Shown: positions 3,220-43,986, numbered from the stretch's first letter. The stretch is DNA of 64,000 nt from an uncultured Lachnospiraceae bacterium (GCA_905203555.1 CAJKWK010000003.1:32032-96031), one strand, 5' to 3'. The notes: generated by a model from the sequence alone, not told the origin. Numbers and translations: made by a program.

Positions 3220-3654
3220 TTAGATTTGTTTCAGAACTTTGAAGAATGTTCCCACGAGAAATATTGCCAACGCAATCATTCCGGCTATTTCCAATGTCTG
3301 TATAAAATAATATGCACTTTTACTATGTTCACCTAATAATACATAATAGATGATCCTATACATCCCTGCTCCCGGCACTGTCGGCAAGATTCCGGGAATC
3401 AGAAAAATCGTGACCGGCGCATGTAAAATTCTTGCAAACGTGTGTGACATAAACGCAATCACAAGTGCAGAGAGAAAAGATGCCAGCACAGCACCGATTT
3501 CATATTCCATACTCACCAGATAAACACCGCCTCCTACAGCTCCTATGAGTCCCGCATACGGCAGATATTTTCTGGGACATTCCAACAGCACAGCAAAACA
3601 AGCGATTGCCAGAAAACTTCCGATCGTCCCCAAAATCAAATGTGCAATATTCAA
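3220..3654 (-). CDS. threonine/serine exporter (ThrE) family protein, small membrane subunit (DUF3815-like)
   Basis: 144-aa polytopic membrane ORF with a TTG start overlapping the stop of the upstream gene, and SD GGAGGTGG. Motif IPGILPTVPGAGMY is typical of the family. Paired with a DUF1212-like partner. Confidence 0.7.
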   Translation of the reverse strand: MNIAHLILGTIGSFLAIACFAVLLECPRKYLPYAGLIGAVGGGVYLVSMEYEIGAVLASFLSALVIAFMSHTFARILHAPVTIFLIPGILPTVPGAGMYRIIYYVLLGEHSKSAYYFIQTLEIAGMIALAIFLVGTFFKVLKQI

Positions 3655-4424
3655 AACAGTCCACCTCCTGGTTTTAAAATCCCCGTTACAGCCATTCCGA
3701 CGCCAACTCCCAAAGCAATGGCAACCGCTGTCATAAAAGCCTCCATTGTCCGGGCCGCCCCCGCCAGATAATCTCCTTGCAGAGAATCCCGAATTGCATA
3801 AGTAATTGCAACTCCGGGTACGATCGGCATAATACTGCTGATGATTACAGTATCCATATTCATGCCCGGAAAGTTATTTTTTAAAAAAATAGCAGAAAGA
3901 GCTACCGCAAATGCACTAAATGCATTCAAAATAAAACCATGTATATGAAAGTATTTCCCGATTGTTGTAATCATCGCCAGTGCGATTCCGGCTATTGCAG
4001 CCCCTCCGATTTCTGCCCAGCCTCCGCCAAAAAGAGGCGCAAATCCGGCACAGACCCCAACCGTCGCCAAATTATAAATCCATCTTTTATACTGACGGCC
4101 TTTAATCGTTTTCAATTCTGCATAAGCCTCATCCAGCGTCATCTCCCCAGCGCAATATCTTCTTGATACTGCGTTCACACGTTCGATCCGGTTCAGATTC
4201 ATCCCTCTGCTCTCTACACGTTTGATTACAGAAATATTTTCTATATCCGGATGATCCAAGGTAACAAAAATCCCTGTTGTCAAAACGACTGTTTCAACCA
4301 TATCAACATTTGCGGTTCCTAAAATACGTGTGATCGTCTCTTCCACACGATAAGTTTCCGCACCGCTCTTTAACATTATTTCTCCAGCCAGAACTGCTGT
4401 ATTCATCAATCGCTTATAGTCCAT
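3651..4424 (-). CDS. threonine/serine exporter (ThrE) family protein, large subunit (DUF1212-like)
   Basis: The ORF track gives 3651..4445 from a GTG. The ATG at 4424 has SD GAGGAAGAG 5 nt upstream and gives MDYKRLMNTAVLAGEIMLKSGAETYRVEETITRIL, the family N-terminal signature. Confidence 0.72.
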   Translation of the reverse strand: MDYKRLMNTAVLAGEIMLKSGAETYRVEETITRILGTANVDMVETVVLTTGIFVTLDHPDIENISVIKRVESRGMNLNRIERVNAVSRRYCAGEMTLDEAYAELKTIKGRQYKRWIYNLATVGVCAGFAPLFGGGWAEIGGAAIAGIALAMITTIGKYFHIHGFILNAFSAFAVALSAIFLKNNFPGMNMDTVIISSIMPIVPGVAITYAIRDSLQGDYLAGAARTMEAFMTAVAIALGVGVGMAVTGILKPGGGLF

Positions 4425-4562
4425 CCCACTCTTCCTCACTCGCACTCTATTTCATGGCTGTAAGCATATAAATCCTGCTAACATACAACTCTTCTTCCAC
4501 TATAGAGAGTTCTCATATATCCGTCAAGTACTATCAAAAAATCCACGTAAGTTTCCCATCCT

Positions 4563-30317: not shown

Positions 30318-30345
30318 CTTGTATAATTGTATACAATTATACAAG
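30318..30345. promoter_or_regulatory. 28-bp perfect palindrome; candidate GntR-family operator
   Basis: CTTGTATAATTGTA|TACAATTATACAAG is exactly self-complementary. The centre TTGTATACAA fits the GntR/FadR-type T.GT..AC.A pattern. It overlaps the spacer and -10 box of the predicted promoter. Confidence 0.65.
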
Positions 30346-30354
30346 TTATGTCAA
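30326..30354 (-). promoter_or_regulatory. candidate sigma-A promoter of the Re-citrate-synthase-like / GntR / icd operon
   Basis: Minus strand reads TTGACA (30354-30349), 17-nt spacer, TACAAT (30331-26), about 50 nt upstream of the ATG at 30275. Confidence 0.55.
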
Positions 30355-30409
30355 TACCTTTTTCGTTTTAATGTGTTAAATTAAAAAAGCCTTCTTTTCT
30401 CAGAAAATT

Positions 30410-30459
30410 GAAAAGAATTCTATAACTATCATTGATTTGATAATTACAGAATTCTTTTC
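30410..30459 (-). terminator. long-loop hairpin downstream of the URO-D-family gene (possible terminator)
   Basis: GAAAAGAATTCT (30410-21) and AGAATTCTTTTC (30448-59) form a 12-bp stem with a 26-nt loop. On the minus strand it is followed by AATTTTCT. TTCTTTTC at 30392-99 offers an alternative pairing. Confidence 0.35.
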
Positions 30460-30500
30460 ATCTGGCAAATTGATTCTATCTGTTATTTAATTCGCACTTC

Positions 30501-31505
30501 TTATTTATAATACTCTTCTACCGCATCAAAGAACGCCTGAATATTTTCTATCGGTGTCTGCGGTGGCATATCACATCCGCTGGAGATCACAAAGTTTGGA
30601 TATTTACTGCAGTTTTCTAATAATTTTAACGCCTCTTTCCGCACTTCCTCAGGTGTTCCGTTTCTCAAAACACCTGCCGGATCCAGATTGCCAACGACCA
30701 CTGCATCAGCTGGCAGTCCTTTTAATGTTGTCTCCATATCTACAGCATTTCCTACACTATATGATCCTACACCAATCTCCCGGATATTATCTAACAGCGG
30801 AATAATATTTCCACAATTATGATACATAATCATAAAATTCTCATCCTCTACTGCATCTCGAATTCTCTGCACATACGGAGTAGAAAATTCTTTGATCAAA
30901 CTCGGAGAGAGCAGCCCTGCTGCCGGCTCTGCAATTGCAATTCCGTTAGCTCCAGCTTCTTTAAACGCCAGCGAATACGCAATCAGAAATTCCGTTGCTT
31001 TCTCTAATACAGTCTCCACCAATTCCGGTTCTTCATAACAAAGAATCATTATTTCTGTCATATCCAGCAATCTACCTGCCAGGGAAAACGGTCCGATAAT
31101 CCCCGCAAGAACCGGTCTGTCTGTAATCCGCTGTGCTGCCTCCTTTATTCCCTTAATGCATTCTCCTGTACGTCCTGCTCCTACCTTCGGCACCTCCAGC
31201 TGATCGGCCTCTTCCTCATCATGAACCAATGCAGCCGTAACTGTTGGAACTTCATCTTCAAAATAGCTGACAGGACTTCCAAATGCTTCCGCTTCCACTG
31301 ACAAATCCATCAAACTAAACGCCGCACCTGTATTAAATTTTTTTGCAATTGCCTCCATACAGTCTGCCTGCAAACTTCCATTTCTCACCAGTTCCTCTAC
31401 CGTATGTCCAATCAGCTGAACTCCCGGAAAAGATAAAATCGGGGCTGCTTTTTTCCGCTCTGACTTGATGGTTTCAGCCACCCATTCTTTCATATTCATT
31501 TTCAT
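30501..31505 (-). CDS. uroporphyrinogen-decarboxylase-family methyltransferase (MtaA/MtbA-like methylcorrinoid:acceptor methyltransferase, MT2)
   Basis: 334-aa URO-D fold with candidate zinc ligands YHNCGN and SSGCDMPP, as in MtaA-type enzymes. SD GGAGGAA. Last gene of the M24-MFS-ThrE-sda string. Confidence 0.78.
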   Translation of the reverse strand: MKMNMKEWVAETIKSERKKAAPILSFPGVQLIGHTVEELVRNGSLQADCMEAIAKKFNTGAAFSLMDLSVEAEAFGSPVSYFEDEVPTVTAALVHDEEEADQLEVPKVGAGRTGECIKGIKEAAQRITDRPVLAGIIGPFSLAGRLLDMTEIMILCYEEPELVETVLEKATEFLIAYSLAFKEAGANGIAIAEPAAGLLSPSLIKEFSTPYVQRIRDAVEDENFMIMYHNCGNIIPLLDNIREIGVGSYSVGNAVDMETTLKGLPADAVVVGNLDPAGVLRNGTPEEVRKEALKLLENCSKYPNFVISSGCDMPPQTPIENIQAFFDAVEEYYK

Positions 31506-31602
31506 TCTCTGTTCCTCCTCGAATGGTTCATTTTTCTAAATCATAACATTTTTCCAAAATTATTCTTGTAGTAAATCTATTTTTTTTGTCATAATTTAAG
31601 AT

Positions 31603-33195
31603 TTAGCGGGCAGCATCTCGAATATCCTGCTCTTTCGCCAATTGCGCTCCACATGGAGTAATGCATAATCCACCCTTGCAGGTACATCGTAATTCCGAAG
31701 GAAGCTGTTTTCCTACTCGAAATAAAGTCTCAGCCGTCTGATCCAGTGGTATTAACGGATCAAATCCACCCATAATCATATTTGCAGATACAACCGCATT
31801 TGCTGCTGACATTGCATTTCTATTGATACATGGAATCTGCACCAACCCGGCTACCGGATCACAAATTGTCCCAAGAATATTCTGAACAGCACAAGATGCA
31901 GCCATACAGCACTGTTCCGGAGTTCCGCCCATCATATACACAAGCGCTCCCGCAGCCATTCCCGATGCCGCCCCCGGCTCCACCTGACATCCATATAATT
32001 CAGCCGAATAATTGCAATCTTTACTCATTACAATTCCTATTACAGAAGTTACAAACATCGCTTTTACTTTTTCTTCCATAGAGAGCCCCAGATGATTTGC
32101 TGTTCCAAGAACAGCTCCCGGAAAGATTCCCGCCGAACCGCCTGTAGGAGCACAAAGTACAACGCCCATAGCACTGCTGTATTCCATTGTAGCCATGGCC
32201 CATGGAACTGCCGTATTCAACACACCCATGTCCAACGCTTTTGTATTCTTCTTTATATACTGTTCCACTTTTCCCGCTGTTGGCTCAATGATGCCAGACA
32301 TATCAATTTCACCTTTTAATGCCTCTTTGGAACTATGTTCCATAGTCTCAACTACACCTTCCATGTACTTCCAAACTGCTTCATAGTCCCAACCACTTCG
32401 AGCCATTTCATATGCGATCCCAAGTTCCCATAATTCTTTTCCGTTTTCTTTTGAAACCTTCAGCATTTCTTCCGCACTTACAAACGGAATTTTTGCATGC
32501 CGATTGGATGGAACAGCTAATACCGGTTTTACATATCTTACTTCTTCTACATGTTCCATTTCTTTCACTTTTTCCAAAAATTCTTTCGGTACTTCCATAC
32601 GTTGCTTTAAATTAATCAAACATTTTCCTTCAAAACTTGAAATAGCATTTCCTTCATCCTCCGGAAGCCTTGCCTGCAATTGTTCCATAAACTGCTCTGC
32701 ATCCCTTTCCGAATAATCCGTAAAAATAAGAACCTCATAGCAATCTCCTACAATCGTAATCGGATATCCATCTACTTGTAACAATTTAACTGTTCCGCCT
32801 CCAGTAGAATCCGAATGCACCTCCACCACTTTTCCTTCTGTATTTTCAAGGATTAAATGAGAAATATTGGGTACAGTCGGCGGGAAATCCTCGATTACAA
32901 ATTCTACTTCTATTCCAGCCGCCTTCGCATCTGAAAATGAATTTCTCAATGCAGGGTCTTCCGGTCTTCTTCCCAGCAAACCATTGACATAGCCCATATC
33001 AGACCTCTGTCCCTTATACATTAACGTATACGCCCCTTCTTTTGCAAACGCGATTGTCGCCTTTTTTAACGCCCCTGGCAACAACTGTTGTGCCAGATAG
33101 CCAATGCGAGAAGGACCGCAAGTATGAGAACTGGATGGTCCAATCATAACCGGTCCTACAATATCATTAAATACGCTTGGATTTTGTCTTTTCAT
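31603..33195 (-). CDS. sdaA: L-serine ammonia-lyase, iron-sulfur dependent, single-chain (beta-alpha fused)
   Basis: N-terminal SdaAB-like SVFNDIVGPVMIGPSSSHTCGPSRIG and GGGTVKLLQVDGYPI, followed by an SdaAA-like C-terminus (CAPTGGSAGIFPGAVLG...CDPVAGLVQIPCINRNA). The 530-aa length is consistent with a fusion. Confidence 0.85.
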   Translation of the reverse strand: MKRQNPSVFNDIVGPVMIGPSSSHTCGPSRIGYLAQQLLPGALKKATIAFAKEGAYTLMYKGQRSDMGYVNGLLGRRPEDPALRNSFSDAKAAGIEVEFVIEDFPPTVPNISHLILENTEGKVVEVHSDSTGGGTVKLLQVDGYPITIVGDCYEVLIFTDYSERDAEQFMEQLQARLPEDEGNAISSFEGKCLINLKQRMEVPKEFLEKVKEMEHVEEVRYVKPVLAVPSNRHAKIPFVSAEEMLKVSKENGKELWELGIAYEMARSGWDYEAVWKYMEGVVETMEHSSKEALKGEIDMSGIIEPTAGKVEQYIKKNTKALDMGVLNTAVPWAMATMEYSSAMGVVLCAPTGGSAGIFPGAVLGTANHLGLSMEEKVKAMFVTSVIGIVMSKDCNYSAELYGCQVEPGAASGMAAGALVYMMGGTPEQCCMAASCAVQNILGTICDPVAGLVQIPCINRNAMSAANAVVSANMIMGGFDPLIPLDQTAETLFRVGKQLPSELRCTCKGGLCITPCGAQLAKEQDIRDAAR

Positions 33196-33662
33196 AGTTT
33201 CTCTCCTCGTTTTCTATTAAAATCACATATTTTTGAAATTGCACTTGACGGAATCTCAAAGGTAAATAAAATTCCCAAAACAATAGCTACCGCAATCCCC
33301 AGTGTATGTCTTCCATACCCCGAACATTGAAATATATTTCCTTCTATTAAATAATAAATAGTCCAATATATCCCTACTCCGGGGACAAGCGGAAAAATTC
33401 CAGACAATAAAAATACCGTAACAGGACATTTTACACTTGTACTGCAGATTCTGGAGCATAACACAACAAATACTGTCGCACACAACGTACTTATATAAGA
33501 AGAAACATTTGTTGCATTTGTTAACAGCCAGCAGATCCCCCATCCCAGACCGCCTATCACACCACAGTGCAAATAATATTTATGCGGAACCTGAAAAATA
33601 GAAGAAAAAGCAATTGTACCCAGAAATGCAGCAAAAAATTGAGATAATAACGATATAACCAT
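33192..33662 (-). CDS. threonine/serine exporter (ThrE) family protein, small subunit (second copy)
   Basis: The ATG at 33662 has SD GGAGGAAG; the track start at 33710 is a TTG inside the upstream gene. Motif LSGIFPLVPGVGIYWTIYY parallels the 3220-3654 paralog. Its stop overlaps the sdaA start. Confidence 0.72.
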   Translation of the reverse strand: MVISLLSQFFAAFLGTIAFSSIFQVPHKYYLHCGVIGGLGWGICWLLTNATNVSSYISTLCATVFVVLCSRICSTSVKCPVTVFLLSGIFPLVPGVGIYWTIYYLIEGNIFQCSGYGRHTLGIAVAIVLGILFTFEIPSSAISKICDFNRKRGEKL

Positions 33663-33678
33663 GCATCTTCCTCCGTTT

Positions 33679-34437
33679 TTATAACAAATAAATCGCAATA
33701 CCAACTCCAATTGCCAGTCCGCTAGTAATTAAAAGCGTATCCAGAAACCGGACCCAGCCCGCAATATAATTTGAATTAGCCAGTTCTCTGACTGCTGTTA
33801 CAAATGAAACGCCCGGTAAATAAGGCATAATCCCTCCCAGAATAATACTATTTACATCATCTCCTATTCCCAACTTAAAAATGATCAACCCTGCGCCTGC
33901 AGCAACAAAACCTGCCATTATATTCCTTATGATTTTAGATGGAATTTCTTTTCTTGTTTCAAAGAAACAAGTCAAACAATATAAAAACACTCCCGAAAGA
34001 AATGCTGCGCCGGAATCATATAAGTTTCCTCCAAATGTATAACAAAAACAAGCAGCTCCAAGACCATATGCCAGCATAGTTTCCAGCACGCTCTTGTTCC
34101 CGAGTTTTTCTATGTACTTTAACTCTTCCAGCGCATCTTCTACAGCATATTCTCCCTGCTCGATCCTTCTGGACAATTCATTGACCTTTGTTATTTTTTC
34201 CATATGCACACCTGAAAATGGAATATGAGACACCTTTGCATACATCTCAAACCGCTCATTTTCCGATGTAAAGAAAATCCCATTACTTAAAACAAAGATC
34301 CCATTCTCAATCAATCCATAGTATTGTAAAATTCTCTGCATTGTTTCTTCTACGCGATAGATTTCTGCTCCACTTGATAAGAGGATACTGCCAGCTCTCA
34401 TGGCAGTATCCAATATATTTTTTTCATATTCTTTCAT
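33679..34437 (-). CDS. threonine/serine exporter (ThrE) family protein, large subunit (second copy)
   Basis: LDTAMRAGSILLSSGAEIYRVEETMQRIL signature, shared with the 3651-4424 paralog. C-terminal TM segments carry GIMPYLPGVSF. Confidence 0.72.
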   Translation of the reverse strand: MKEYEKNILDTAMRAGSILLSSGAEIYRVEETMQRILQYYGLIENGIFVLSNGIFFTSENERFEMYAKVSHIPFSGVHMEKITKVNELSRRIEQGEYAVEDALEELKYIEKLGNKSVLETMLAYGLGAACFCYTFGGNLYDSGAAFLSGVFLYCLTCFFETRKEIPSKIIRNIMAGFVAAGAGLIIFKLGIGDDVNSIILGGIMPYLPGVSFVTAVRELANSNYIAGWVRFLDTLLITSGLAIGVGIAIYLL

Positions 34438-34445
34438 TCAATTCT

Positions 34446-35735
34446 TTATTTTTTCTTTTTTGACTCCTGAATCAGTTTTCTTTTTTCTTTTGTTACTCCC
34501 ATCCATGCAACACTGGCAAGTAAACCTACGACAGCCATCACGCAGAGCACACCAAAGAATACCTTATATCCCGTAGCTCCTGCCCATTTATCCAGACAAA
34601 CGCCTGCGATCAACGGCATGAAAAATTCAGCACTGTAACCAAGAGGTGTAATAATCGCTGTTGCTGTACCTGTAATCTCCAACGGATATTCTCCTTCTTC
34701 CATAATCGCAAAATGCATGGATTGAATTGCATACATAGATACATAAATTGCTGCAATAAACACTAGCAGCATCCAAAGCATGGACGGCTGTCCCGGTGTA
34801 AAGATAACTCCTGCAATTCCGGCAATCATAATCCCAAACGAAACTGCCGCAACTTTAGAGGAACCTATTTTATCTGCGATCACACCTGATGCGAAACATC
34901 CCACCGGGCGGCAATACTGTGAAAAATATCCCAATGCAGCAGCAATAACAGCAGACATTCCAAATACGCTGGTAGCATACGGAGTAATATAGAAATAACT
35001 GATGATCATTCCGTAAGAACAGAAAATAATTACAATCTGCAGCCAGGTTGTCGGCATTTTTGCAACACGTTTTAAAATTGCTTTATTGAAAAGTTTCTTG
35101 TCTTTTTCCTCTTTTTCGCCGTCGCTCTCCGGCTCCTTAAACATAAAGAATACCAAGATACCAAGTAATACATTAATCAATGAGTATACAATAATAATTG
35201 CAGACAATGCAGTCTGATCAGAATATACTTTTGCAAGATATCCAAACATTGCAAGAATCAATGCAGACTGAACCATATTGACAACCCCACGTCCACCTTC
35301 AAAGAAACCAAACGCTTTTCCCTGCTCATCTGAATTTGCAAGAGAACGTATCGCCTTTACCAAAGCACTCCAAAATGTAAGAATAGAGGTAATTCCCCAG
35401 ACACAATGAATTAGCATGACAACCGGATATGGCGGGAATAACAGCAATACAAAGCCCAAAACTCCCGTTGTAATAAGTGAAATTGTCATCAGATATCTTG
35501 CCGGCCAGCGGTCTGCACAAAATCCACCTAATGCATATGCAATAATACTGAAACCTCCATATGCGCTCCCAAGCGCTCCCATCTGCGTATTTGTAATCCC
35601 AAAACTAGCAACAAATGCATCATAATAATAATTTCTGAAGTATGGCAATGCATAAATCATTGCTCCTGACAAAACCAAGATAATCAAAGTTGGCATATTT
35701 TTCTTTAATTTACTTCCTGTATTCTTTTCGCTCAT
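34446..35735 (-). CDS. MFS transporter
   Basis: 429 aa with about 12 predicted hydrophobic segments, a central charged loop (EPESDGEKEEKDKK) and an MFS-like motif GGFCADRWPAR after TM2. SD AGGAGAG. Confidence 0.8.
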   Translation of the reverse strand: MSEKNTGSKLKKNMPTLIILVLSGAMIYALPYFRNYYYDAFVASFGITNTQMGALGSAYGGFSIIAYALGGFCADRWPARYLMTISLITTGVLGFVLLLFPPYPVVMLIHCVWGITSILTFWSALVKAIRSLANSDEQGKAFGFFEGGRGVVNMVQSALILAMFGYLAKVYSDQTALSAIIIVYSLINVLLGILVFFMFKEPESDGEKEEKDKKLFNKAILKRVAKMPTTWLQIVIIFCSYGMIISYFYITPYATSVFGMSAVIAAALGYFSQYCRPVGCFASGVIADKIGSSKVAAVSFGIMIAGIAGVIFTPGQPSMLWMLLVFIAAIYVSMYAIQSMHFAIMEEGEYPLEITGTATAIITPLGYSAEFFMPLIAGVCLDKWAGATGYKVFFGVLCVMAVVGLLASVAWMGVTKEKRKLIQESKKKK

Positions 35736-35771
35736 AACAACTCTCCTACACTTCCTAATTTGTACTTTTCA

Positions 35772-36872
35772 TTATCTGATCGGAACAATGCTGTCTTCTA
35801 ATTTTTTACTTCTGTGTGTCAATGTTACACACCCATCTTCTGTTACCAAAATATCGTCTTCCAGACGAACTCCGCCGATTCCCTGCAGATAAATTCCCGG
35901 CTCGATCGTAAAAGTCATGCCTTCTTCCAGTACCAGTTCATTTACCGACGTAATATACGGTTCCTCATGTACACTTAAACCAAGTCCATGACCTGTTCTA
36001 TGTAAGAAAAACTCGCCATATCCTGCTTCTGTAATATAATCTCTTGCTGCTTTATCAATTTCTTTTGCCTTCACTCCCGGTCTTACTTTTGAAATCGCAG
36101 TTAAATTAGCGTGAAGCACGATATTATATATTTCTTCCAGTTTTGGATTACCAACATGCCCAACAAACAGACACCGGGTTGTATCTGACCAATATCCTTT
36201 GTAATAGGCACAGAAATCCATTAAAATAATATCGCCTTCTTTAAATCCATAGTCTCCGCTTGCTCCATGCGGATTTGCAGAGTTGTCTGCCGCCTGAACC
36301 AGGATAATAATTTCCTCTGTACTAAATCCCGGATACTGAGACATGTAATTTAAAAGCATCATATTCAGTTCACTTTCCGTCATTCCAGGCTTAATCTTGT
36401 CAAATACATAGTCAACTGCTTTATCAACAATTTCAGCCGCCGTCTGCATTGCCTCAATTTCTTTAGCATCTTTATACATACGCAGTCTGGAAATGCTATC
36501 TCCGATATCACATACTTCGCATGGAAGTGAAGTGAAAATATCCCCAATCATCATATTAAAATATTTCTTCTCTACTGCCAGCTTACCACATTCTCCAATT
36601 ACTTCTTCGATCAGTGCTGCCGGACCATTTTCATCCAAATATGTCTTTTCCGGAACAACGCCTTTCATACAATCCGTATCAACACTTGGAACCATCATTA
36701 CAAAAGTTTCTTTCTCTGCATCTGCAACCAACGCATAAAAACGTTCGTATGGTGTAATGTGGATTCCAGTAAGATAATCAACAGACATCGGATCACCAAT
36801 GACTGCTTTATCAAATCCGTTTTCTCTTAATAATCTGCATGCTTTTAACTGTCTTTCTCGAATTAAATCCAT
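35772..36872 (-). CDS. M24B-family metallopeptidase (Xaa-Pro dipeptidase / aminopeptidase P-like hydrolase)
   Basis: Creatinase/prolidase N-domain plus a pita-bread domain. Metal ligands look intact: DFCAYYKGYWSD, HRTGHGLGLSVHE, TIEPG and VRLED. Confidence 0.85.
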   Translation of the reverse strand: MDLIRERQLKACRLLRENGFDKAVIGDPMSVDYLTGIHITPYERFYALVADAEKETFVMMVPSVDTDCMKGVVPEKTYLDENGPAALIEEVIGECGKLAVEKKYFNMMIGDIFTSLPCEVCDIGDSISRLRMYKDAKEIEAMQTAAEIVDKAVDYVFDKIKPGMTESELNMMLLNYMSQYPGFSTEEIIILVQAADNSANPHGASGDYGFKEGDIILMDFCAYYKGYWSDTTRCLFVGHVGNPKLEEIYNIVLHANLTAISKVRPGVKAKEIDKAARDYITEAGYGEFFLHRTGHGLGLSVHEEPYITSVNELVLEEGMTFTIEPGIYLQGIGGVRLEDDILVTEDGCVTLTHRSKKLEDSIVPIR

Positions 36873-36907: not shown

Positions 36908-36923
36908 TTCACGTTTATGATTT
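36908..36923. promoter_or_regulatory. 16-bp motif TTCACGTTTATGATTT, copy 1 (candidate regulator-binding site upstream of the M24 operon)
   Basis: Exact 16/16 match to 37917-37932. Lies 36-51 nt upstream of the M24 ATG, between a TTGACT(-35)-like box and the SD. Confidence 0.45.
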
Positions 36924-37054: not shown

Positions 37055-37082
37055 TTGTATATTTTCACATATATGATATTAT

Positions 37083-37670
37083 TTACTCTTCTTCATCTTC
37101 TTCACTAGAGAATTCCTCTTTGTTGATCCGCGTCCAATGCGATACAGACGCTTGATCCGTACTCTTATTAAAAAAGCTGTGTTTTGTATTTGCCTTTACA
37201 AAAATACTATCACCTTCTTGAAGGTCAATCTCCTCATTTTCCAATAAGACTGTCAGTTGACCGCTCAGCACAGTTCCTACCTCGTCAAATTCATGGGTCC
37301 AGCGCTCTTCTCTCGTATCAGACATCGGCTCCAAATGCACAAATAAAAAAGAAACCTGTTCAATCCCAAAGTCTACGATATCAATTTTCATATCTGATTG
37401 ATTATCCAGATAACTCTCGCGTTCTTCTTTTTTGATCACTATTCGTTCCTGTGCGTTTCGTTCGATAAGGTCTCCTAGAGATGTATTAAAAACCTCACAT
37501 ATTTTCTGCAGATTCATCAATGTAGGACTTGTAATATTTCTTTCTATATTACTCAAATAACCCGTTGAAAGTCCTGTTTCACTCGCCATCTGCTGCAATG
37601 TAATTTTATTTGCCTTTCTAAGACTCCTGATACTTCTTCCTATTTTGTCAAGATTCCCCATACTGTTCAC
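37083..37670 (-). CDS. XRE-family HTH + cupin-domain transcriptional regulator
   Basis: HTH_3 (IRSLRKANKITLQQMASETGLSTGYLSNIERN) and a C-terminal cupin (GTVLSGQLTVLLENEEIDLQEGDSIFVKANTKHSF). The start may instead be the ATG at 37661. Confidence 0.85.
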   Translation of the reverse strand: MNSMGNLDKIGRSIRSLRKANKITLQQMASETGLSTGYLSNIERNITSPTLMNLQKICEVFNTSLGDLIERNAQERIVIKKEERESYLDNQSDMKIDIVDFGIEQVSFLFVHLEPMSDTREERWTHEFDEVGTVLSGQLTVLLENEEIDLQEGDSIFVKANTKHSFFNKSTDQASVSHWTRINKEEFSSEEDEEE

Positions 37671-37916: not shown

Positions 37917-37932
37917 TTCACGTTTATGATTT
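37917..37932. promoter_or_regulatory. 16-bp motif TTCACGTTTATGATTT, copy 2 (in the 5' leader of the MttB-family gene)
   Basis: Exact repeat of 36908-36923. Lies between the predicted -10 box and the SD GGAGG of the gene at 37958. Confidence 0.45.
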
Positions 37933-37957: not shown

Positions 37958-39391
37958 ATGTATATTCCACAGCTTAGTTATGCAAATCAGGAACAACTTG
38001 AATTTCTTCACCAGTATAGTGTTGATATTCTTTGCAAGATTGGTATGAAAGTTGAAGATCCTGAGATTCGAAAAGCATTATGCGAACACAATTGTACAGA
38101 AAAGGGTGAGCGCATCTTATTCAGCGAATCTCTAATCGAAAAAACCATTCAAAATTTAAAGCAAACACTTACGTTTACCTGTCACGCATCCGGTAAAAAA
38201 ACAATTGCTGAACTTTATAAAACAATCACACACAGCACCGGTGGTGCGCCATGGATTTTAGATCCCATACATAAAACAAAACGAAACGGTATGTTGACTG
38301 ATCTGGTTGATACCATTCGGGTTATGAACCAACTGCCGGAACTGGACATCCCTTGTGCCTTATTATATCCGTCAGATGTTCCGGCTGAGATCACACAACT
38401 CAAGCAGACAGCTACCATGTTCCAATATTCCAGAAAACCAATCTATGGTCCTGGAGTATCCATGGCAAACAATGCGAAATATATTGCAGAACTTTTTAAA
38501 GTATATGGAGGCGGTGCAGATGAACTGACTGAAAATCCTATTGGTATGGTTGGTATTTCTCCGGAATCTCCTTTATTCTTGCCAAAAGAAATTACAGATA
38601 CTATGAAATATATCATTGGCGCCGGAATCCCTACCAGCGTACTTTCTGCTCCGATGGGCGGTCTTACATCCCCATTATCCGTAGCTGGTACTGTCACTCA
38701 GGCTCATGCAGAAATTCTTGGATTTGCCTGTGTTGCATATTTGATCAATCCAAACTGTACTTTATTCTATGGATCCAGAACATTTTTTGCAAACATGAAG
38801 AACGCACAGAGTATATTGGGCCTTCCTGAAACCGGTATCTCCAGTACACTTTGTGTTCAATTAGCAAATAGGATTGGTTTTATGACAGATATTTATGGTA
38901 TGACTACCACCTCTTGTGCAATGGATGAACAGGCAGCTTATGAAAAAATGCTGAATGGAATTCTTCCTGGTATGGCACATGGTACGATTATTACTGGTTT
39001 TGGATGTCTTGCAAGTAACATGGCTTGTTCACTGGGACAGCTTGTATTGGATAACGAAATGATGGCAATCATCCGAAAAGCACAGCGTGCCATGGAATAT
39101 ACACCTGAAGAAATGGGATTGGAAGCATTGGAAGCAGTCATCAATGATGAGGAAACATTCCTGGTTCAGGATCACACACTGGACCACCTGTATGATGAAG
39201 TATTTCAGCCTGAAATTGGATTTGACAGTGTCTGGGCTGACTGGTCCGCACGCGGCGAAATACCATTAAACGTTCGAGCTGAAGAACGTGCACGAGAACT
39301 CATTCAGAAGGACGGCGATTTTGAAGCTCCCGCCGAATTGATTGCAGAAGCAGAAAAAATTCTGAACTTTGCAGAAAAAGAGCTTATGTGA
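37958..39391 (+). CDS. MttB-superfamily (trimethylamine methyltransferase family) substrate:corrinoid methyltransferase, non-pyrrolysine type
   Basis: 477-aa uninterrupted ORF with no in-frame TAG. Family-like segments are GISPESPL, SAPMGGLTSPLSVAGTVTQAHAEIL and LDNEMMAIIRKA. SD GGAGG. Neighbours are a corrinoid protein and an activator. Confidence 0.82.
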   Translation: MYIPQLSYANQEQLEFLHQYSVDILCKIGMKVEDPEIRKALCEHNCTEKGERILFSESLIEKTIQNLKQTLTFTCHASGKKTIAELYKTITHSTGGAPWILDPIHKTKRNGMLTDLVDTIRVMNQLPELDIPCALLYPSDVPAEITQLKQTATMFQYSRKPIYGPGVSMANNAKYIAELFKVYGGGADELTENPIGMVGISPESPLFLPKEITDTMKYIIGAGIPTSVLSAPMGGLTSPLSVAGTVTQAHAEILGFACVAYLINPNCTLFYGSRTFFANMKNAQSILGLPETGISSTLCVQLANRIGFMTDIYGMTTTSCAMDEQAAYEKMLNGILPGMAHGTIITGFGCLASNMACSLGQLVLDNEMMAIIRKAQRAMEYTPEEMGLEALEAVINDEETFLVQDHTLDHLYDEVFQPEIGFDSVWADWSARGEIPLNVRAEERARELIQKDGDFEAPAELIAEAEKILNFAEKELM

Positions 39392-39406
39392 AACCTTTAA
39401 AACTAG

Positions 39407-39451
39407 TAAAAGAAAACGAGGCGATGATCAAAAACCGCCTCGTTTTCTTTT
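39407..39451. terminator. bidirectional terminator between the convergent MttB-family and activator genes
   Basis: AAAAGAAAACGAGGCGatgatcaaaaacCGCCTCGTTTTCTTTT. Confidence 0.75.
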
Positions 39452-39453
39452 AC

Positions 39454-41640
39454 TTAAAACATCATATATTCTACATAAAACTCCTGAAACTTTTTATTGG
39501 ATGAAAGTTCAATTTCTTTTGAGCTGGTTACAATTTCCTCAAAACGCACCTCCGCTTCTGGATCTCTCAGGCTTTTTACGAGCCCCTTCAAACAACTATT
39601 TCCAATTGCAATGATCTTATCTACACATTCCTCTGGAAAAAGTCCGATTTGAATCGCTTTTTCAACATTCATTTTATATCCAAATCCGCCTCCAATATAA
39701 ATATGCTCAATCTCATCATAGGAAATTCCATACTCCAGAATCAACGTTTCCAAGCCAGCCCTCACTGCAGACTTGGCAAGCTGTATCTCTCTGATATCTT
39801 TCTGATAAAAGCGAATATCTTCTGTATGCGATAACTCAAAGCCATCCTCGAAATAGTCTTCTTCCATCAGACCACTTTCTTCTATCACCCCTGCCTTCAA
39901 GAGCTCATATGTCGTTTCCAAAACACCGGTTCCACAAATCCCCAAAGGTTTTTTCCCACCGATTGTTTCCACTTTTGCTTTCTTCTTTTCATCTACAGAA
40001 ACACTACAGATTGCTCCAGGTATACTTCCCGTACCACATGTAATATTTCCACCCTCAAATGCGGGACCTGCCGCTGTTGATGTGACATAAATCTGATTTT
40101 GTTTTCCAATAGCCATTTCTCCATTGGTTCCAAGATCAATCAAAACTGACACCGATTCATTTTTATGGAAATCAAGTGCATATAAACCTGCTGTAATATC
40201 CCCTCCAACATAAGTCGATATTCCCGGATATATCGTAATGGGGAAATCCATCTGATCCGTAGAAAGCAGGTCTTTTGCACAAGTATGTATGGTATCTATG
40301 TTTACCGGATGGAACGGATATACCCCCAGTGTTTCACAGGAATAACCCATCAACAGATGAACCATTGTAGTATTGGCGCCGATCACCATCTTCTCTACTT
40401 GAAGAGTTCCCGCTTGTGTAAGGCTCAAAACTCCCTTATATAAATCATTTTGTATCATGGCTCTCAAAGCATCCCTTTTCCCCTGATTCGATGCATTGAT
40501 CCGACTGATTACATCTGCTCCATAAGCGCGCTGTCGATTAATCGAAGTATACGTATCAATTACACTTCCATTATTCTGATCTACCAGCTGCATCGCAATT
40601 GTCGTAGTGCCAATATCCGCTGCAATCGCAAAAGAATGTTTCTCCTCGTTATCCGGAGTGCTTTCAACTCCATTCTCAATGTCAGAATCATGCGCTGTAA
40701 CTACCTCCATTTCATTCTCATTCCCAACAATCCTGATTTTACAATCAGACGCAGGAAACAGGGAACACGCCAACCGCCATCCAATTTTCAGTTCTTCCTC
40801 TGAAAAGAAAATTTCATCCTCTCCGCTTGCCGGACATTCGCCCGCCAAAACCAGCACCTTACATTTTCCACACGTTCCTCTTCCCGCACAAATTGCAGGA
40901 AGATAGATCTGATGTCTTTGCAAAGCCGTCAATAAACTTTCTGACTTTCTTGCAAAGATTTCACGTTCTTCTCCCTCTATCTGTACCAAAATCGATACCA
41001 TATCTGTTTTTCTTCGTTTGCAGGTATAATTATCACAGCGCCGACAGTCATGCTGGGTTCGAAATCTTTTTTCATTATCATCCAGCAAATATATTGAGCA
41101 AAGCGTTTTAACCGGATCGTACATAAAACTAGGCTTAATCAAAATTCCTTCCTTCTCTGCCCCTGTTGCCTCGTATGCCGCTTGCTGCTGTTCCATTGGG
41201 AAATCTTTCGGAATTTCTGCTCTTCCCACAATTCCCTTTTTCTTCATGCGCCCATATTGAATCACATCCTCTTCCAATTGTCCATCCATCTGAAACAGGT
41301 AATCATCTGCAATCGCATCTGCGAGCATTCCCTTTACATAATCTCCTTCCGCAAAAAACCGCGAACTCCAGTTTTCCATTTCTTTTCCAATGGAACATAT
41401 TGAATAAAGCGCCTCTGTAATCTTTTCCCCCTTATACTCTATTTCTTGATTTTTTAAACTTCCAATTTCCAACAATGCTATCGGTTTTATTTTTTCTTTT
41501 GCCAATGGCAGCATCTCCTGTAATTCCTCGAAAACTTCCTCATACAGATGATGCCCCTGGAAAATCCCCATCCAACTCAATACATTCTCTACTGATATTG
41601 TAATTTTAAAGTCTGTCTTTCTCATTGTATTTTCACCCAT
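39454..41640 (-). CDS. corrinoid reductive activator (RamA/RACE-type: 2Fe-2S ferredoxin + ASKHA ATPase domains) with an extra ~210-aa N-terminal domain
   Basis: Ferredoxin motif CAGRGTCGKCKV...LAC near residue 250. ASKHA/DUF4445-like part with AADIGTTTIAM...IDLGTNGEMA...GICGTG. A start at the second ATG (41625, GGGTGA 7 nt upstream) is equally possible. Confidence 0.8.
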   Translation of the reverse strand: MGENTMRKTDFKITISVENVLSWMGIFQGHHLYEEVFEELQEMLPLAKEKIKPIALLEIGSLKNQEIEYKGEKITEALYSICSIGKEMENWSSRFFAEGDYVKGMLADAIADDYLFQMDGQLEEDVIQYGRMKKKGIVGRAEIPKDFPMEQQQAAYEATGAEKEGILIKPSFMYDPVKTLCSIYLLDDNEKRFRTQHDCRRCDNYTCKRRKTDMVSILVQIEGEEREIFARKSESLLTALQRHQIYLPAICAGRGTCGKCKVLVLAGECPASGEDEIFFSEEELKIGWRLACSLFPASDCKIRIVGNENEMEVVTAHDSDIENGVESTPDNEEKHSFAIAADIGTTTIAMQLVDQNNGSVIDTYTSINRQRAYGADVISRINASNQGKRDALRAMIQNDLYKGVLSLTQAGTLQVEKMVIGANTTMVHLLMGYSCETLGVYPFHPVNIDTIHTCAKDLLSTDQMDFPITIYPGISTYVGGDITAGLYALDFHKNESVSVLIDLGTNGEMAIGKQNQIYVTSTAAGPAFEGGNITCGTGSIPGAICSVSVDEKKKAKVETIGGKKPLGICGTGVLETTYELLKAGVIEESGLMEEDYFEDGFELSHTEDIRFYQKDIREIQLAKSAVRAGLETLILEYGISYDEIEHIYIGGGFGYKMNVEKAIQIGLFPEECVDKIIAIGNSCLKGLVKSLRDPEAEVRFEEIVTSSKEIELSSNKKFQEFYVEYMMF

Positions 41641-41661: not shown

Positions 41662-41892
41662 TAACAAAATAAACTCTTTTTGTCGCAAAAAGAGTTCTTC
41701 ATTACACCATATTTTATAGCAAGCCTCCTACCCCAGACAATGCTATAAGAAAATTGATCCAGTATCCTGACTCACAGTTCATCCTCCAAATCCCTTCTCA
41801 TCTTTCGACAATGGTCTTTGATTCTTCGTCCCTGTTTACAGTAGGGGTAAGCCTGTACCAGATTTTCACTGGTTTCCTTTTATCATTTTCTT
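41662..41892 (-). promoter_or_regulatory. cobalamin riboswitch with intrinsic-terminator expression platform
   Basis: Minus-strand RNA reads GGAAACCAGUGAAAAUCUGGUACAGGCUUACCCCUACUGUAAACAGGGACGAAG ... GACCAUUGucgaaagaugaGAAGGGA ... then the B12 box AGUCAGGAUACUGG (41772-41759). The terminator is AACUCUUUUUgcgacAAAAAGAGUU + UAUUUU (41696-41662). This matches the conserved cobalamin aptamer core. Confidence 0.8.
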
Positions 41893-41905
41893 CATCTGTC
41901 TTTTC

Positions 41906-42547
41906 TTATTTTGCAGCCAATACCAATTCCTTCGCAAGATCAGCACAGGAAGCCGCATCCGGTGTATAATGGTCTGCACCGATTTGTTCGCAGAAGCTTT
42001 CATTTACAGGTGCTCCGCCAATCATAACAATATACTTATCGCGAACTCCTCTTTCTTTTAACAATTCAACCACTTCCTGCATTTTAGGCATTGTTGTTGT
42101 AAGTAATGCAGACATACAGATCACATCTGCTCCAACCTCTTCTGCCTTATCCAAAAATGCTGCTGATTCAACATCAACGCCTAAGTCGAACACTTCGAAA
42201 CCGGCTCCTTTTAACATCATTACAACCAGATTTTTACCGATATCGTGTAAGTCTCCCTGCACGCTACCAACAACTGCTTTTCCCAAAGGCTCATTTCCAA
42301 TTTCGATTAATTTTGGTTCAAGAATAGTAAGTCCTGCATTCATTGCACGTGCTGCAACAAGAACTTCCGGAACAAAAACTTCATTGTTTTTGAATTTTGC
42401 ACCGATGATCATCATTCCACCCAATAATCCCTCATTAAGGATCAGCTTTGGATCCATTTCTTCATCGATCGCCTGCTGCACCAATGCTTTTACATTTTTT
42501 GCACGCCCTTTTTGTAAATACTCTGAAATTTCCTGAATCAGTTCCAT
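41906..42547 (-). CDS. corrinoid (cobalamin-binding) protein of a methyltransferase system
   Basis: 213 aa: an N-terminal B12-binding_2 helical cap and a Rossmann B12-binding domain with DxHxxG (GDLHDIGKNLV) plus MSALLTTTMP. SD GGAGGAGAG. Confidence 0.88.
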   Translation of the reverse strand: MELIQEISEYLQKGRAKNVKALVQQAIDEEMDPKLILNEGLLGGMMIIGAKFKNNEVFVPEVLVAARAMNAGLTILEPKLIEIGNEPLGKAVVGSVQGDLHDIGKNLVVMMLKGAGFEVFDLGVDVESAAFLDKAEEVGADVICMSALLTTTMPKMQEVVELLKERGVRDKYIVMIGGAPVNESFCEQIGADHYTPDAASCADLAKELVLAAK

Positions 42548-42738: not shown

Positions 42739-43986
42739 ATGAAACCATTACTATACACCATTGTCCCGGAGGAAAATATACATTCTATGGCTCTTACCTT
42801 TAGTAAATGCGTAAAACTCCCCATACAGATTATTAACGAAGAAGGAAAACTATTAGTTTCAGAAGGAGATTCTCCACATTTTTGTACACTTTTTCAAAAA
42901 CATCTTCCTTCTTATGATTCCTGTGAAAAAATGCATCTTTCCGCCAGTAAAAAGGCAATTACACTTGGAGAGGCCTATATTTTTGCCTGTCATGCAGAAT
43001 TAAATCACATTGTTTATCCACTTTTTACAAGAAACATCTTCCTCGGTTCCATTCTGGTCGGTCCTTTTTTAATGGATACACCCGATTCTATTCTGATCAG
43101 TGATATTGCAAAAAAATATCCGTTTACTACAGAAGAAGCTCTGGAACTATACGATGAAAGTAATTCCATCCCGGTCATTGAACCAGCACTTGTAAATCAC
43201 ATCAGCCATCTGCTCTTTTATTTATTTTCAAACTTAATTGCAGACAGCAAAAAGGAATTGCTTCAAAACAACCAAAAACTTTTACAACAGTCCAGAATCA
43301 ATGAATCCATCCAGCGTTATAAGGCTGAAAATCTTAAAACCAATTCCTATCCCTATGAAAAAGAAAAGGAATTGATCAATCAAGTAAAAAAGGGGGACTC
43401 AAAAGCTGCAAATGCTGTTCTAAATGATTTATTGGGCTATGTGTTATTTTCACAAGGAAATAGTCTGGATGCAGTAAAACCTCGCGCCATTGAATTGTGC
43501 ACCCTGCTTTCACGTACTGCAATCGAAGGAGGCGCGCCCACAGACAGTATTTTAAAATTAAACAATCACTTTTTGCAGAATCTGCAGAAAATTGACTCCA
43601 TGGATACCCTATGCCATAAGCTCCAGGAAGTGGTAGAAACGTTCTCGGAAAGTATGTTTAATTATATTCCTTCAAAAAACAACGAAATCATCAAGCGTGC
43701 CTTGCAATACATATATGAACATTTTCAGATGCCGGTTACTTTAGAGGATGCAGCAGAATCTGTACATCTCCATCCATCCTATTTTTCCAGTATGTTTAAG
43801 AAATCCACCGGCTCTTCTTTCAAAGAATATCTGAATATGGTTCGAATAGAAGAAAGCAAACGCCTGCTCACTAACACCGATTTTTCCATTATCGACATTG
43901 CCATTGCAGTCGGTTTTGAAGATCAAAGTTATTTTTCAAAAGTATTCAAAAAGTACACCGGTCTTACGCCAAAACAATTTCGCTGA
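42739..43986 (+). CDS. PocR-sensor-domain AraC-family transcriptional regulator
   Basis: The N-terminal ~160 aa is PocR-like (FCTLFQKH...CEKMHL...FACHAELNHIVYPL). The C-terminal AraC HTH pair is TLEDAAESVHLHPSYFSSMFKK...IIDIAIAVGFEDQSYFSKVFKKYTGLTPKQFR. Divergent from the corrinoid protein gene. Confidence 0.85.
   Translation: MKPLLYTIVPEENIHSMALTFSKCVKLPIQIINEEGKLLVSEGDSPHFCTLFQKHLPSYDSCEKMHLSASKKAITLGEAYIFACHAELNHIVYPLFTRNIFLGSILVGPFLMDTPDSILISDIAKKYPFTTEEALELYDESNSIPVIEPALVNHISHLLFYLFSNLIADSKKELLQNNQKLLQQSRINESIQRYKAENLKTNSYPYEKEKELINQVKKGDSKAANAVLNDLLGYVLFSQGNSLDAVKPRAIELCTLLSRTAIEGGAPTDSILKLNNHFLQNLQKIDSMDTLCHKLQEVVETFSESMFNYIPSKNNEIIKRALQYIYEHFQMPVTLEDAAESVHLHPSYFSSMFKKSTGSSFKEYLNMVRIEESKRLLTNTDFSIIDIAIAVGFEDQSYFSKVFKKYTGLTPKQFR

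Follow-up and report, generated by a model that had tools for sequence, protein, structure and literature searches.

Which pathway is served by a string of six genes for a hydrolase, a transporter, an exporter pair, a serine dehydratase and a methyltransferase that lies beside a gene of the MttB family of corrinoid methyltransferases? We analyzed this locus in a 64,000-nucleotide stretch of DNA from an uncultured Lachnospiraceae bacterium (GCA_905203555.1 CAJKWK010000003.1:32032-96031; hereafter the window, with positions counted from its first letter). An earlier reading of the sequence, hereafter the original prediction, had proposed that the six genes form one operon and that they link a corrinoid-dependent methyltransferase either to the breakdown of an imported N-methylated compound or to the routing of methyl carbon through serine to pyruvate. 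Our analysis indicates that the six genes probably serve as the operon for transport and catabolism within a single, substrate-specific corrinoid methyltransferase regulon, whose first methyltransferase (MT1) is a divergently placed, clade-A member of the MttB family. The gene architecture, the conserved co-occurrence of its genes and an operator-like motif present in the leaders of both the six-gene string and mttB are demonstrated here.

Six genes laid out as a single operon

ORF (open reading frame) calling and domain searches recovered six minus-strand ORFs from position 36872 down to 30501, at the coordinates that the original prediction had given. Together with the hairpin that closes the string they are:

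35772-36872, minus strand: M24B (prolidase-like) metallohydrolase, the operon's first gene (Pfam Peptidase_M24, 1.6e-65, plus Creatinase_N)
34446-35735, minus strand: MFS transporter, presumed importer (Pfam MFS_1, 3.8e-30)
33679-34437, minus strand: ThrE-family exporter, large subunit (Pfam ThrE, 9.2e-60, 202 bits)
33192-33662, minus strand: ThrE_2 small subunit (Pfam ThrE_2, 1.8e-35, 122 bits)
31603-33195, minus strand: SdaF, a fused SDH_beta + SDH_alpha protein of 530 amino acids (aa) (SDH_alpha, 3.9e-64)
30501-31505, minus strand: URO-D / MtaA-CmuA-type methyltransferase, the presumed methylcorrinoid:tetrahydrofolate (THF) methyltransferase (MT2) (Pfam URO-D, 1.4e-64, 219 bits)
30411-30458, minus strand: terminator-like hairpin at the end of the operon (stem of 20 pairs, -34 kcal/mol, z = -7.1, with a U-rich tail behind it)

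Because all curated equivalog cut-offs of NCBIfam were missed, each operon protein is treated here as a member of its family and not as a named orthologue.

The short gaps that had been described between these genes were read off the sequence: 36 nucleotides (nt) separate M24 from MFS, 8 nt MFS from ThrE and 97 nt SdaF from MT2, and the stop of ThrE_2 overlaps the start of SdaF by 4 nt (ATGA). The ThrE_2 ORF opens at a TTG at 33710; the ATG at 33662, preceded by GGAGGA, is the likelier start and leaves a gap of about 16 nt to ThrE. No promoter or terminator was predicted on the coding strand of the 97-nt spacer between SdaF and MT2, and the spacer folds no better than shuffled sequences (z = -1.0). 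The only terminator-like signal is the strong hairpin directly past the MT2 stop, with none inside the operon, and a near-consensus promoter beyond the hairpin (TTGACA-17-TACAAT, 30354-30326) serves the next operon, which encodes HMGL-like, GntR and IDH proteins. Thus, the short gaps, the signal-free spacer and the hairpin after MT2 give the string the layout of one operon ending at 30.4 kb: its genes lie on the same strand with short gaps and end at a hairpin without an internal terminator, and at the level of layout the string is arranged like one transcription unit, as had been proposed.

Contigs from RNA libraries (two metatranscriptome runs of one study), which may contain DNA and cannot prove one transcript, span the gap between SdaF and MT2. 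They derive from a close relative 90-99% alike to the window and cover 30347-33246 (MT2, the spacer, SdaF and the start of ThrE_2) and 31313-31631 (the spacer). Runs X23 and X24 gave short fragments only, and contig cover was absent in X19 over 34061-36815 (M24 and most of MFS) and in X20 over M24, from which nothing is concluded. The contigs across the spacer are a weak hint in favour of one operon. The same 9-kb stretch is also present in pig-gut metagenomes of several studies.

Several neighbors were considered as further members of the unit and rejected. The genes serA (45228-44044) and serC (46291-45209) do lie beyond the locus, as the original prediction had pointed out, but their adjacency is not conserved: no match to either was reported among the 39 SdaF-anchored loci or the 14 MttB-anchored metagenome loci described below, and the adjacency therefore looks incidental. 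The HMGL-GntR-IDH genes were set aside since HMGL and IDH likewise lack matches in related loci, including near SdaF in the SdaF-anchored set, and since they have their own strong promoter, and FTHFS and FolD since they lie about 15 kb away. A perfect 14+14 palindrome at 30318-30345 overlaps the -10 box of the HMGL-like/GntR/IDH promoter and is likely the operator of the GntR regulator encoded in that operon.

The hydrolase and transporter genes accompany a distinct MttB clade

The genes beyond the 5' end of the string encode further components of a corrinoid methyltransferase system:

37083-37670, minus strand: XRE-cupin (PuuR-like) regulator between the two units (HTH_3 plus Cupin_2)
37958-39391, plus strand: non-pyrrolysine MttB-family MT1, clade A (Pfam MTTB, 1.5e-62)
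39454-41640, minus strand: RACo-type reductive activator (RACo_C_ter, Raco_middle, Fer2)
41739-41942, minus strand: cobalamin riboswitch between the corrinoid-protein and activator genes (Rfam RF00174, 55.6 bits, threshold 31.5)
41906-42547, minus strand: corrinoid protein (B12-binding plus B12-binding_2)
42739-43986, plus strand: PocR-AraC regulator, divergent from the corrinoid-protein unit (PocR plus HTH_AraC)

The MTTB profile (PF06253) matches the MttB protein over its full length (212 bits; residues 3-452 against profile positions 28-475). The ORF of 477 aa is uninterrupted and has no pyrrolysine codon, with Thr316 at the pyrrolysine position of 7xcl. No specific NCBIfam name was found for the MttB proteins. 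The window MttB groups with those of loci L015, L016, L027 and L037 at 44-65% identity, which we refer to as clade A; the MttBs linked to BCCT transporters (clade B) are about 20% identical to it. About 100 sequence clusters of clade A were found among 5.8 billion sequences, and within the host's family only 3 of the 400 genomes sampled carry it. Ruminococcus sp. OA3 (68% identical), Desulfotruncus alcoholivorax and Syntrophaceticus schinkii are named organisms that have a clade-A MttB. A perfect 19-bp inverted repeat with a 12-nt loop (39405-39454), likely a bidirectional terminator, separates mttB from the convergent RACo gene.

We examined the neighborhood of clade-A MttB in 14 metagenome loci. 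M24 and MFS were present in 13, and in the exception the gene lies where the contig ends; XRE-cupin was present in 12 loci, the ThrE pair in 7 and SdaF in 5. A racemase-like gene occurred in 3 of the 5 SdaF-positive and in 0 of the 9 SdaF-negative loci. M24 also lies beside clade-A MttB in four genome loci, and the MFS gene is always paired with the M24 gene in clade-A loci. All three clade-A genomes of the host's family carry XRE, M24 and MFS, and two of the three the ThrE pair. The window's M24-MFS-ThrE-ThrE_2-SdaF string is repeated in L052 (89% identical) and L053 (72%), the same gene set is held in at least five gene orders, and L059 combines it in a one-strand operon of the order corrinoid protein, M24, MFS, MttB, pterin-binding MT2 and corrinoid protein. 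The partners thus form a hierarchy, with M24, MFS and XRE-cupin as the core and the ThrE pair as a frequent add-on, and SdaF and the racemase-like gene constitute a facultative module that also joins other MttB systems. The proposed co-occurrence of M24, MFS, ThrE and sdaA with this MttB clade therefore stands for M24 and MFS, extends to about half of the loci for ThrE and is facultative for SdaF. The original prediction had named a lack of synteny with MttB-family genes in relatives as its refutation; instead, M24 and MFS recur with clade A wherever flanks are examinable, and the link of the string to MttB is real. Two multiplied arrangements were also seen: two M24-MFS pairs flanking a ThrE pair in one clade-A locus (L056:92-6615, minus strand), and two M24 and two MttB genes in tandem in L037 and L065.

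The same linkage was approached from SdaF in 39 loci of species-representative genomes, with Lachnospiraceae, Oscillospiraceae, Eubacteriaceae, Desulfovibrionaceae, Dethiosulfatibacter, Desulfotomaculum, Syntrophaceticus and a metagenome-assembled genome (MAG) of Propionibacterium among the sources; the 33 loci with full-length SdaF were counted. An MttB-family gene was present in 18 of the 33 and XRE-cupin in 24, mostly divergent from SdaF, a linkage that spans Bacillota, Thermodesulfobacteriota and one Actinomycetota MAG. BCCT was found in 14, a PRK07475 Asp/Glu-racemase-like gene in 9 and the M24 and MFS pair in 4 of these loci; TRAP-SdaF and SdaF-RidA-permease operons without MttB also occur. 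By comparison, 20-kb stretches around canonical sdaA in six of these genomes held no MttB, XRE-cupin, BCCT, M24 or MFS of these families (0/6). For the racemase-like protein, Atlas gave a generic name only. In two Desulfovibrionaceae loci (L029:8439-9656 and L033:6435-7610) an alpha/beta hydrolase with an epoxide-hydrolase N-domain lies between SdaF and an MttB-BCCT pair, in the place of the racemase-like or M24 gene elsewhere. Five SdaF/clade-B loci (L019 and L022-L025; e.g. L024:8622-9035) encode a conserved protein of 137-157 aa between the XRE-cupin and BCCT genes, for which no Pfam or NCBIfam match was found.

Both leaders share an operator-like motif

The leaders of the M24 operon and of mttB contain a common element:

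36908-36923, unstranded: operator-like motif ahead of the M24 operon, about 38 nt before the M24 ATG
37917-37932, unstranded: operator-like motif ahead of mttB, downstream of the -10 box and upstream of the ribosome-binding site

An exact 16-mer is common to these two positions, and a third copy with 3 mismatches lies at 37064-37079. We compared the leaders of nine other clade-A loci, whose proteins have diverged to 60-90%. The core CAYRNNNATGA precedes the M24 ATG by 34-38 nt in the window, L052, L053, L054/L055, L056 and L057 and, in several loci, precedes the mttB ATG by 39-77 nt; it is palindromic in some. A second shared element, TGAAA...TTTCA, lies upstream of the mttB -35 box and overlaps the motif copy in the M24 leader. 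The XRE-cupin protein encoded between the two units is the presumed repressor.

The gene complement of the host also bears on the unity of the locus. In the genome, which is 92% complete, one MttB gene and one URO-D gene were found, both in this locus, and the string's last gene is therefore the only MT2 candidate for the only MT1; to this extent the predicted tie of the MT2 gene to the locus held up. B12-binding_2 had two matches in the genome, the small corrinoid protein of the locus and one within a 799-aa open frame. The URO-D protein scores 165 bits against TIGR01463, below the cut-off of 235, and an H-x-C motif (Y-H-N-C) and a later G-C-D are readable in it; H-x-C ... C is the zinc motif known from MtaA.

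These results bear directly on whether the locus is a chance juxtaposition, in which an operon for serine and threonine transport and catabolism (M24, MFS, ThrE and SdaF) would by accident lie next to a methyltransferase locus unrelated to it. In favor of chance, all of these gene families are common on their own, SdaF is absent from many related loci, as are the ThrE pair and MT2, and the serC-serA adjacency is not conserved. However, M24 and MFS accompany MttB in clade-A loci wherever the flanks are open to inspection, in at least five orders and once inside an operon running from corrinoid protein to MT2; an MttB-family gene lies near SdaF in 18 of 33 loci against none of six for canonical sdaA; the motif is conserved in both leaders; and the string ends with the one MT2 candidate that the genome was found to contain. 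Chance juxtaposition is therefore strongly disfavoured, and we consider it very improbable.

Clade A has an altered substrate pocket and a prolidase-like partner

In the glycine betaine methyltransferase MtgB, Y97 and F356 make cation-pi contacts, and R312 and H348 hold the acid group of the substrate; R312 is conserved in MtgB, MtcB, MtpB, MthB and MtyB, all of which have acidic substrates (PMC13080624). Aligned to MtgB (9yce), the window MttB has Asp311, Thr346 and Asn354 at the positions of R312, H348 and F356 and a gap at Y97; it thus lacks the Arg of the characterised quaternary-amine branch. Asp occupies the R312 position in nearly all of clade A (101 of 102 full-length proteins, with identities as low as 37%). 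Clade-B proteins carry R-L-H-F/Y at the pocket positions, and a Faecalicatena clade-B MttB (270 bits to MtgB) keeps Y97, R312, H348 and F356. With Asp in place of the acid-binding Arg, clade A is, to judge from the alignment, unlikely to bind an acidic betaine in the manner of MtgB. Together with its M24, MFS and XRE-cupin genes, these data define clade A as a small, sharply bounded clade with a diagnostic pocket change and a fixed partner set.

The M24B protein retains its metal ligands (D219, D230, H295, E324 and E338), as the original prediction had stated, and these five ligands of the pita-bread fold are kept in 20 of 20 homologues. Its best solved relative is the Pyrococcus horikoshii dipeptidase 1wn1 (229 bits), and it falls below the PepQ/YpdF equivalog cut-offs (NF040821, 210 vs 630; NF007310, 191 vs 393). 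Identity as a creatinase or ectoine hydrolase was rejected on the intact ligands and on the scores, 229 bits for prolidases vs 85 for the ectoine hydrolase model. The MFS transporter had no specific NCBIfam assignment and only a generic name in Atlas. ThrE and ThrE_2 domains lie on adjacent genes, as in a two-component exporter, with scores below the equivalog cut-offs. The window contains a second ThrE at 3220-4445 (minus strand; 264 aa, Pfam ThrE 241 bits), followed by a 144-aa ORF in the ThrE_2 position, with a LysR regulator and a chromate-transporter pair as neighbors; the exporter pair of the operon is therefore an extra copy.

SdaF is a separate paralog family of Fe-S serine dehydratases

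The cluster cysteines C403, C445 and C456, T351 and the GPSSSHT motif of SdaF align to the Legionella L-serine dehydratase (LSD) 4rqo, and the cluster cysteines, catalytic Thr and GPSSSHT are invariant in 12 family members, giving SdaF the motif of an Fe-S L-serine ammonia-lyase. Its scores remain below the equivalog cut-offs (TIGR00718, 227 vs 243; TIGR00720, 182 vs 345; TIGR00719, 98.5 vs 161). Compared with six canonical alpha subunits, SdaF has G352 for Ala and A355 for Cys near the active site. Furthermore, C504, C506 and C511 do not vary within the SdaF family, whose consensus also includes C515 (window 31603-31700), whereas the six canonical subunits have no Cys at positions 504, 506, 511 and 515 and read E-T...GG-L-A instead. 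To judge from this pattern, the C-terminal motif may be a second metal or cluster site.

Canonical sdaA is present alongside SdaF in six of six genomes (the host and five others), and SdaF is only 32% identical to the canonical alpha subunit of its own genome; SdaF is therefore an extra paralog. Its relatives, of about 530 aa and 58-99% identity, are many and come from varied lineages. The original description of a fused L-serine dehydratase is thus correct as to the SDH_beta and SDH_alpha fusion, but the protein belongs to a separate, MttB-linked paralog family and is not the canonical enzyme. In a quick SdaF tree (a partial paralog, row L004, on a very long branch was ignored), clade-A contexts appear at two places within a tree mostly of BCCT/clade-B contexts, and Desulfovibrionaceae are placed inside Bacillota groups, a pattern that suggests a mobile module.

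Genes next to SdaF point to the kind of product it makes. PFL and its activase directly follow SdaF on the same strand in L053 (L053:555-3550, minus strand; a locus 72-83% identical to the window), where the window has the URO-D gene, and RidA follows SdaF in L038 and L040. Together with the family name of ThrE, which hints at a serine/threonine-type product, PFL and RidA suggest that SdaF yields a 2-oxo acid via an enamine. In Bengtsoniella intestinalis (L066:4085-10367), canonical two-subunit sdaAB lies just downstream of PocR, corrinoid protein and URO-D methyltransferase genes, a serine dehydratase beside a corrinoid methyltransferase unit without MttB.

A proposed pathway and the role of SdaF

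In the pathway that we propose, the MFS transporter would import an N-methylated compound, probably amide-linked, in which the group near the methyl-bearing nitrogen would not be acidic because Asp replaces the acid-binding Arg. Clade-A MttB would then methylate the Co(I) corrinoid protein, with the RACo activator among its partners, and the URO-D enzyme would hand the methyl group to tetrahydrofolate. The M24B metallohydrolase would cut an amide bond, either in the substrate or in the product of demethylation, SdaF would turn a serine-type product into a 2-oxo acid, probably pyruvate, and the ThrE pair would export undegraded amino-acid-like product.

Several observations weigh against parts of this proposal. 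SdaF and the ThrE pair are absent from many clade-A loci, and the core reaction can accordingly do without them; at E<=1e-30, no SdaF-like sequence was detected in one clade-A genome of 98% completeness, and another of the three clade-A genomes of the host's family has SdaF elsewhere, in a BCCT/clade-B context. The presence of near-duplicates (L054/L055, L015/L063/L064 and L037/L065) reduces the evidence to about a dozen independent lineages, not 22. Only in this lineage was MT2 seen directly after SdaF, and this part of the predicted MT2 tie looks lineage-specific: in L053 the place is taken by PFL, and the L052 contig stops short of it. URO-D-family methyltransferases of anaerobes can also be MT1, and the MT2 role of the URO-D protein is accordingly a presumptive one. 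The M24 protein resembles ordinary prolidases and, judged by these relatives, could have a housekeeping-like specificity. CAYRNNNATGA is about 20-fold enriched in leaders compared to the rest of the loci, with a P value inflated because the motif was derived from the sequences in which it was then counted; positional conservation, not the P value, is the real argument for it. Finally, the RNA-library contigs carry neither strand nor transcript ends, are possibly DNA and do not prove a single transcript.

The role of SdaF within the proposed pathway can be read in two ways that we consider about equally likely. In the first, which is possible though doubtful, SdaF would act on the substrate's own skeleton. 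The substrate would be an N-methylated beta-hydroxy-alpha-amino-acid derivative, e.g. serine or threonine betaine, entering free via BCCT at clade-B loci and amide-linked via MFS, to be cut by M24, at clade-A loci; SdaF would then dehydrate the serine-like skeleton, maybe still N-methylated, to pyruvate or 2-oxobutyrate plus an amine. Consistent with this, the racemase-like protein (Asp_Glu_race, PRK07475), whose presence implies an alpha-stereocentre, accompanies SdaF, a ThrE-family exporter is encoded in the same operon, and the TRAP-SdaF and SdaF-RidA-permease operons without MttB suggest direct import of the SdaF substrate. The presence of canonical sdaA in every SdaF genome tested, the differences of SdaF near its active site and its C-terminal Cys-rich motif point the same way, as do the MtgB-type alpha-betaine-binding Y/R/H/F residues retained by BCCT-linked MttBs, and the Asp-for-Arg change of clade A fits an amide-masked carboxylate. 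However, serine and threonine betaines are not known to be abundant gut compounds. Because a single MttB removes one methyl group, SdaF would also have to accept an N,N-dimethyl amino acid, which is unprecedented in its family. SdaF keeps all catalytic residues of an L-serine dehydratase, and its ties to at least three MttB pocket types are more simply explained by a generic role.

Such a generic role is the essence of the second reading, which we hold equally tentatively, and in which SdaF would serve as an inducible L-serine ammonia-lyase at the point where methyl-group or glycine catabolism ends. There, methyl-THF would be oxidised to methylene-THF, which GlyA would join with glycine to give serine, and SdaF would deaminate the serine to pyruvate. 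This role would be independent of the substrate and would therefore place SdaF beside many different MttB modules: SdaF occurs with clade A (Asp), clade B (MtgB-like R-L-H-F/Y) and other pockets, whose simplest common denominator is the one-carbon unit or glycine. Its canonical catalytic residues agree with such a role, and PFL beside SdaF in L053 fits a pyruvate product. There is precedent in aerobes, since sdaB and glyA belong to the betaine catabolic (GbdR) regulon of Pseudomonas. In Ruegeria pomeroyi, glycine betaine, choline and carnitine make SdaA one of the most induced proteins, alongside THF-linked one-carbon oxidation (PMC12478193). Against this second reading, the racemase-like partner, the ThrE pair and the TRAP/permease operons without MttB are left unexplained, and the host already has canonical sdaAB. 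The window also encodes FTHFS and FolD, and there is a weak ACS match; the host may thus feed methyl-THF directly into acetyl-CoA. No glyA, gcv, metF or folD was found among the conserved neighbor families of SdaF loci, in which only selected clusters were annotated, an observation that favors the skeleton as the target of SdaF and disfavors the one-carbon route.

A bolder extension of the proposed pathway, which we regard as unlikely, is that clade-A MttB and its obligate M24B partner would represent a new substrate class of corrinoid methyltransferases, namely non-acidic, amide-linked N-methyl compounds such as N-terminally tri- or dimethylated Xaa-Pro peptides from host or dietary proteins, or betainyl amides. 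The prolidase-like enzyme would then cut an Xaa-Pro-type bond, and N-methylated serine would for the first time be the substrate of an Fe-S dehydratase, with SdaF giving a methylamine and pyruvate.

Comparison with known systems

A close parallel in organization is the MthB/MthC/MthA choline methyltransferase system with its accessory enzyme MthK, which defines the true MttB-type substrate, phosphocholine, in Eubacterium limosum (PMC12155760). Both systems combine a non-pyrrolysine MT1 of the MttB superfamily, a corrinoid protein, an MT2 and a clustered accessory enzyme, and the genes of both co-localise in many genomes; as MthK shows, the true substrate in such clusters can be set by an accessory enzyme. 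In contrast to the present locus, the Mth accessory is a kinase, phosphocholine is acidic and the Arg is conserved (PMC13080624). The locus described here, known from sequence alone, has M24B, MFS, the ThrE pair and an Fe-S dehydratase as accessories and Asp in place of Arg. The MtgB/MtgC/MtgA system of Desulfitobacterium hafniense (2qne, 9yce) is of the same fold family, with MtgB scoring 109 bits to the window MttB; it differs from the locus in all four pocket residues described above and in having BCCT where the locus has MFS and M24. As in the aerobic betaine regulon of Ruegeria pomeroyi (MtgBCD and SdaA; PMC12478193), N-demethylation genes appear to be co-regulated with an enzyme of the serine-dehydratase type that would feed pyruvate. 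Aerobic betaine regulons, however, strip all methyl groups to glycine and use a housekeeping-type SdaA or SdaB, whereas the locus has one MT1 and no linked glyA, and its dehydratase comes from a paralog family of its own that carries an additional Cys motif.

SdaF shares with the Legionella pneumophila LSD (4rqo) the three cluster cysteines, the catalytic Thr, the N-terminal GPSSSHT and the order of beta then alpha, but the two score only 135 bits, and SdaF is about 70 residues longer between the domains and carries the C-terminal Cys motif. The tdc operon of Escherichia coli encodes the dehydratase TdcB, the transporter TdcC, the keto-acid formate-lyase TdcE, the RidA protein TdcF and the SdaA-type dehydratase TdcG. 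A similar set of transporter, serine/threonine dehydratase, RidA and PFL-like genes is found piecewise around SdaF in L038, L040 and L053; unlike the locus, tdc has no methyltransferase, corrinoid protein, M24 or ThrE, and its regulators differ.

Most members of the MttB superfamily have no assigned substrate, and such members are labelled MtxB in MAGICdb (PMC10653893). In our literature search, no paper was found that links MttB with a serine dehydratase gene cluster, with an M24 peptidase or with Xaa-Pro. The system is a corrinoid methyltransferase system of known kind, of which the pocket signature, the obligate hydrolase and transporter partners and the dedicated Fe-S dehydratase paralog are undescribed. 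The last MttB substrate to be solved, phosphocholine, came only through a clustered accessory enzyme, and here the pocket change and the fixed partners (M24B, MFS and XRE-cupin) make the substrate question testable at the bench with four or five proteins and few candidates. Moreover, SdaF emerges as a separate paralog family that, in anaerobes of gut and sediment, is tied again and again to catabolism of the methylamine type. Altogether, these findings bear on how gut microbes dispose of methylated nitrogen compounds without forming trimethylamine.

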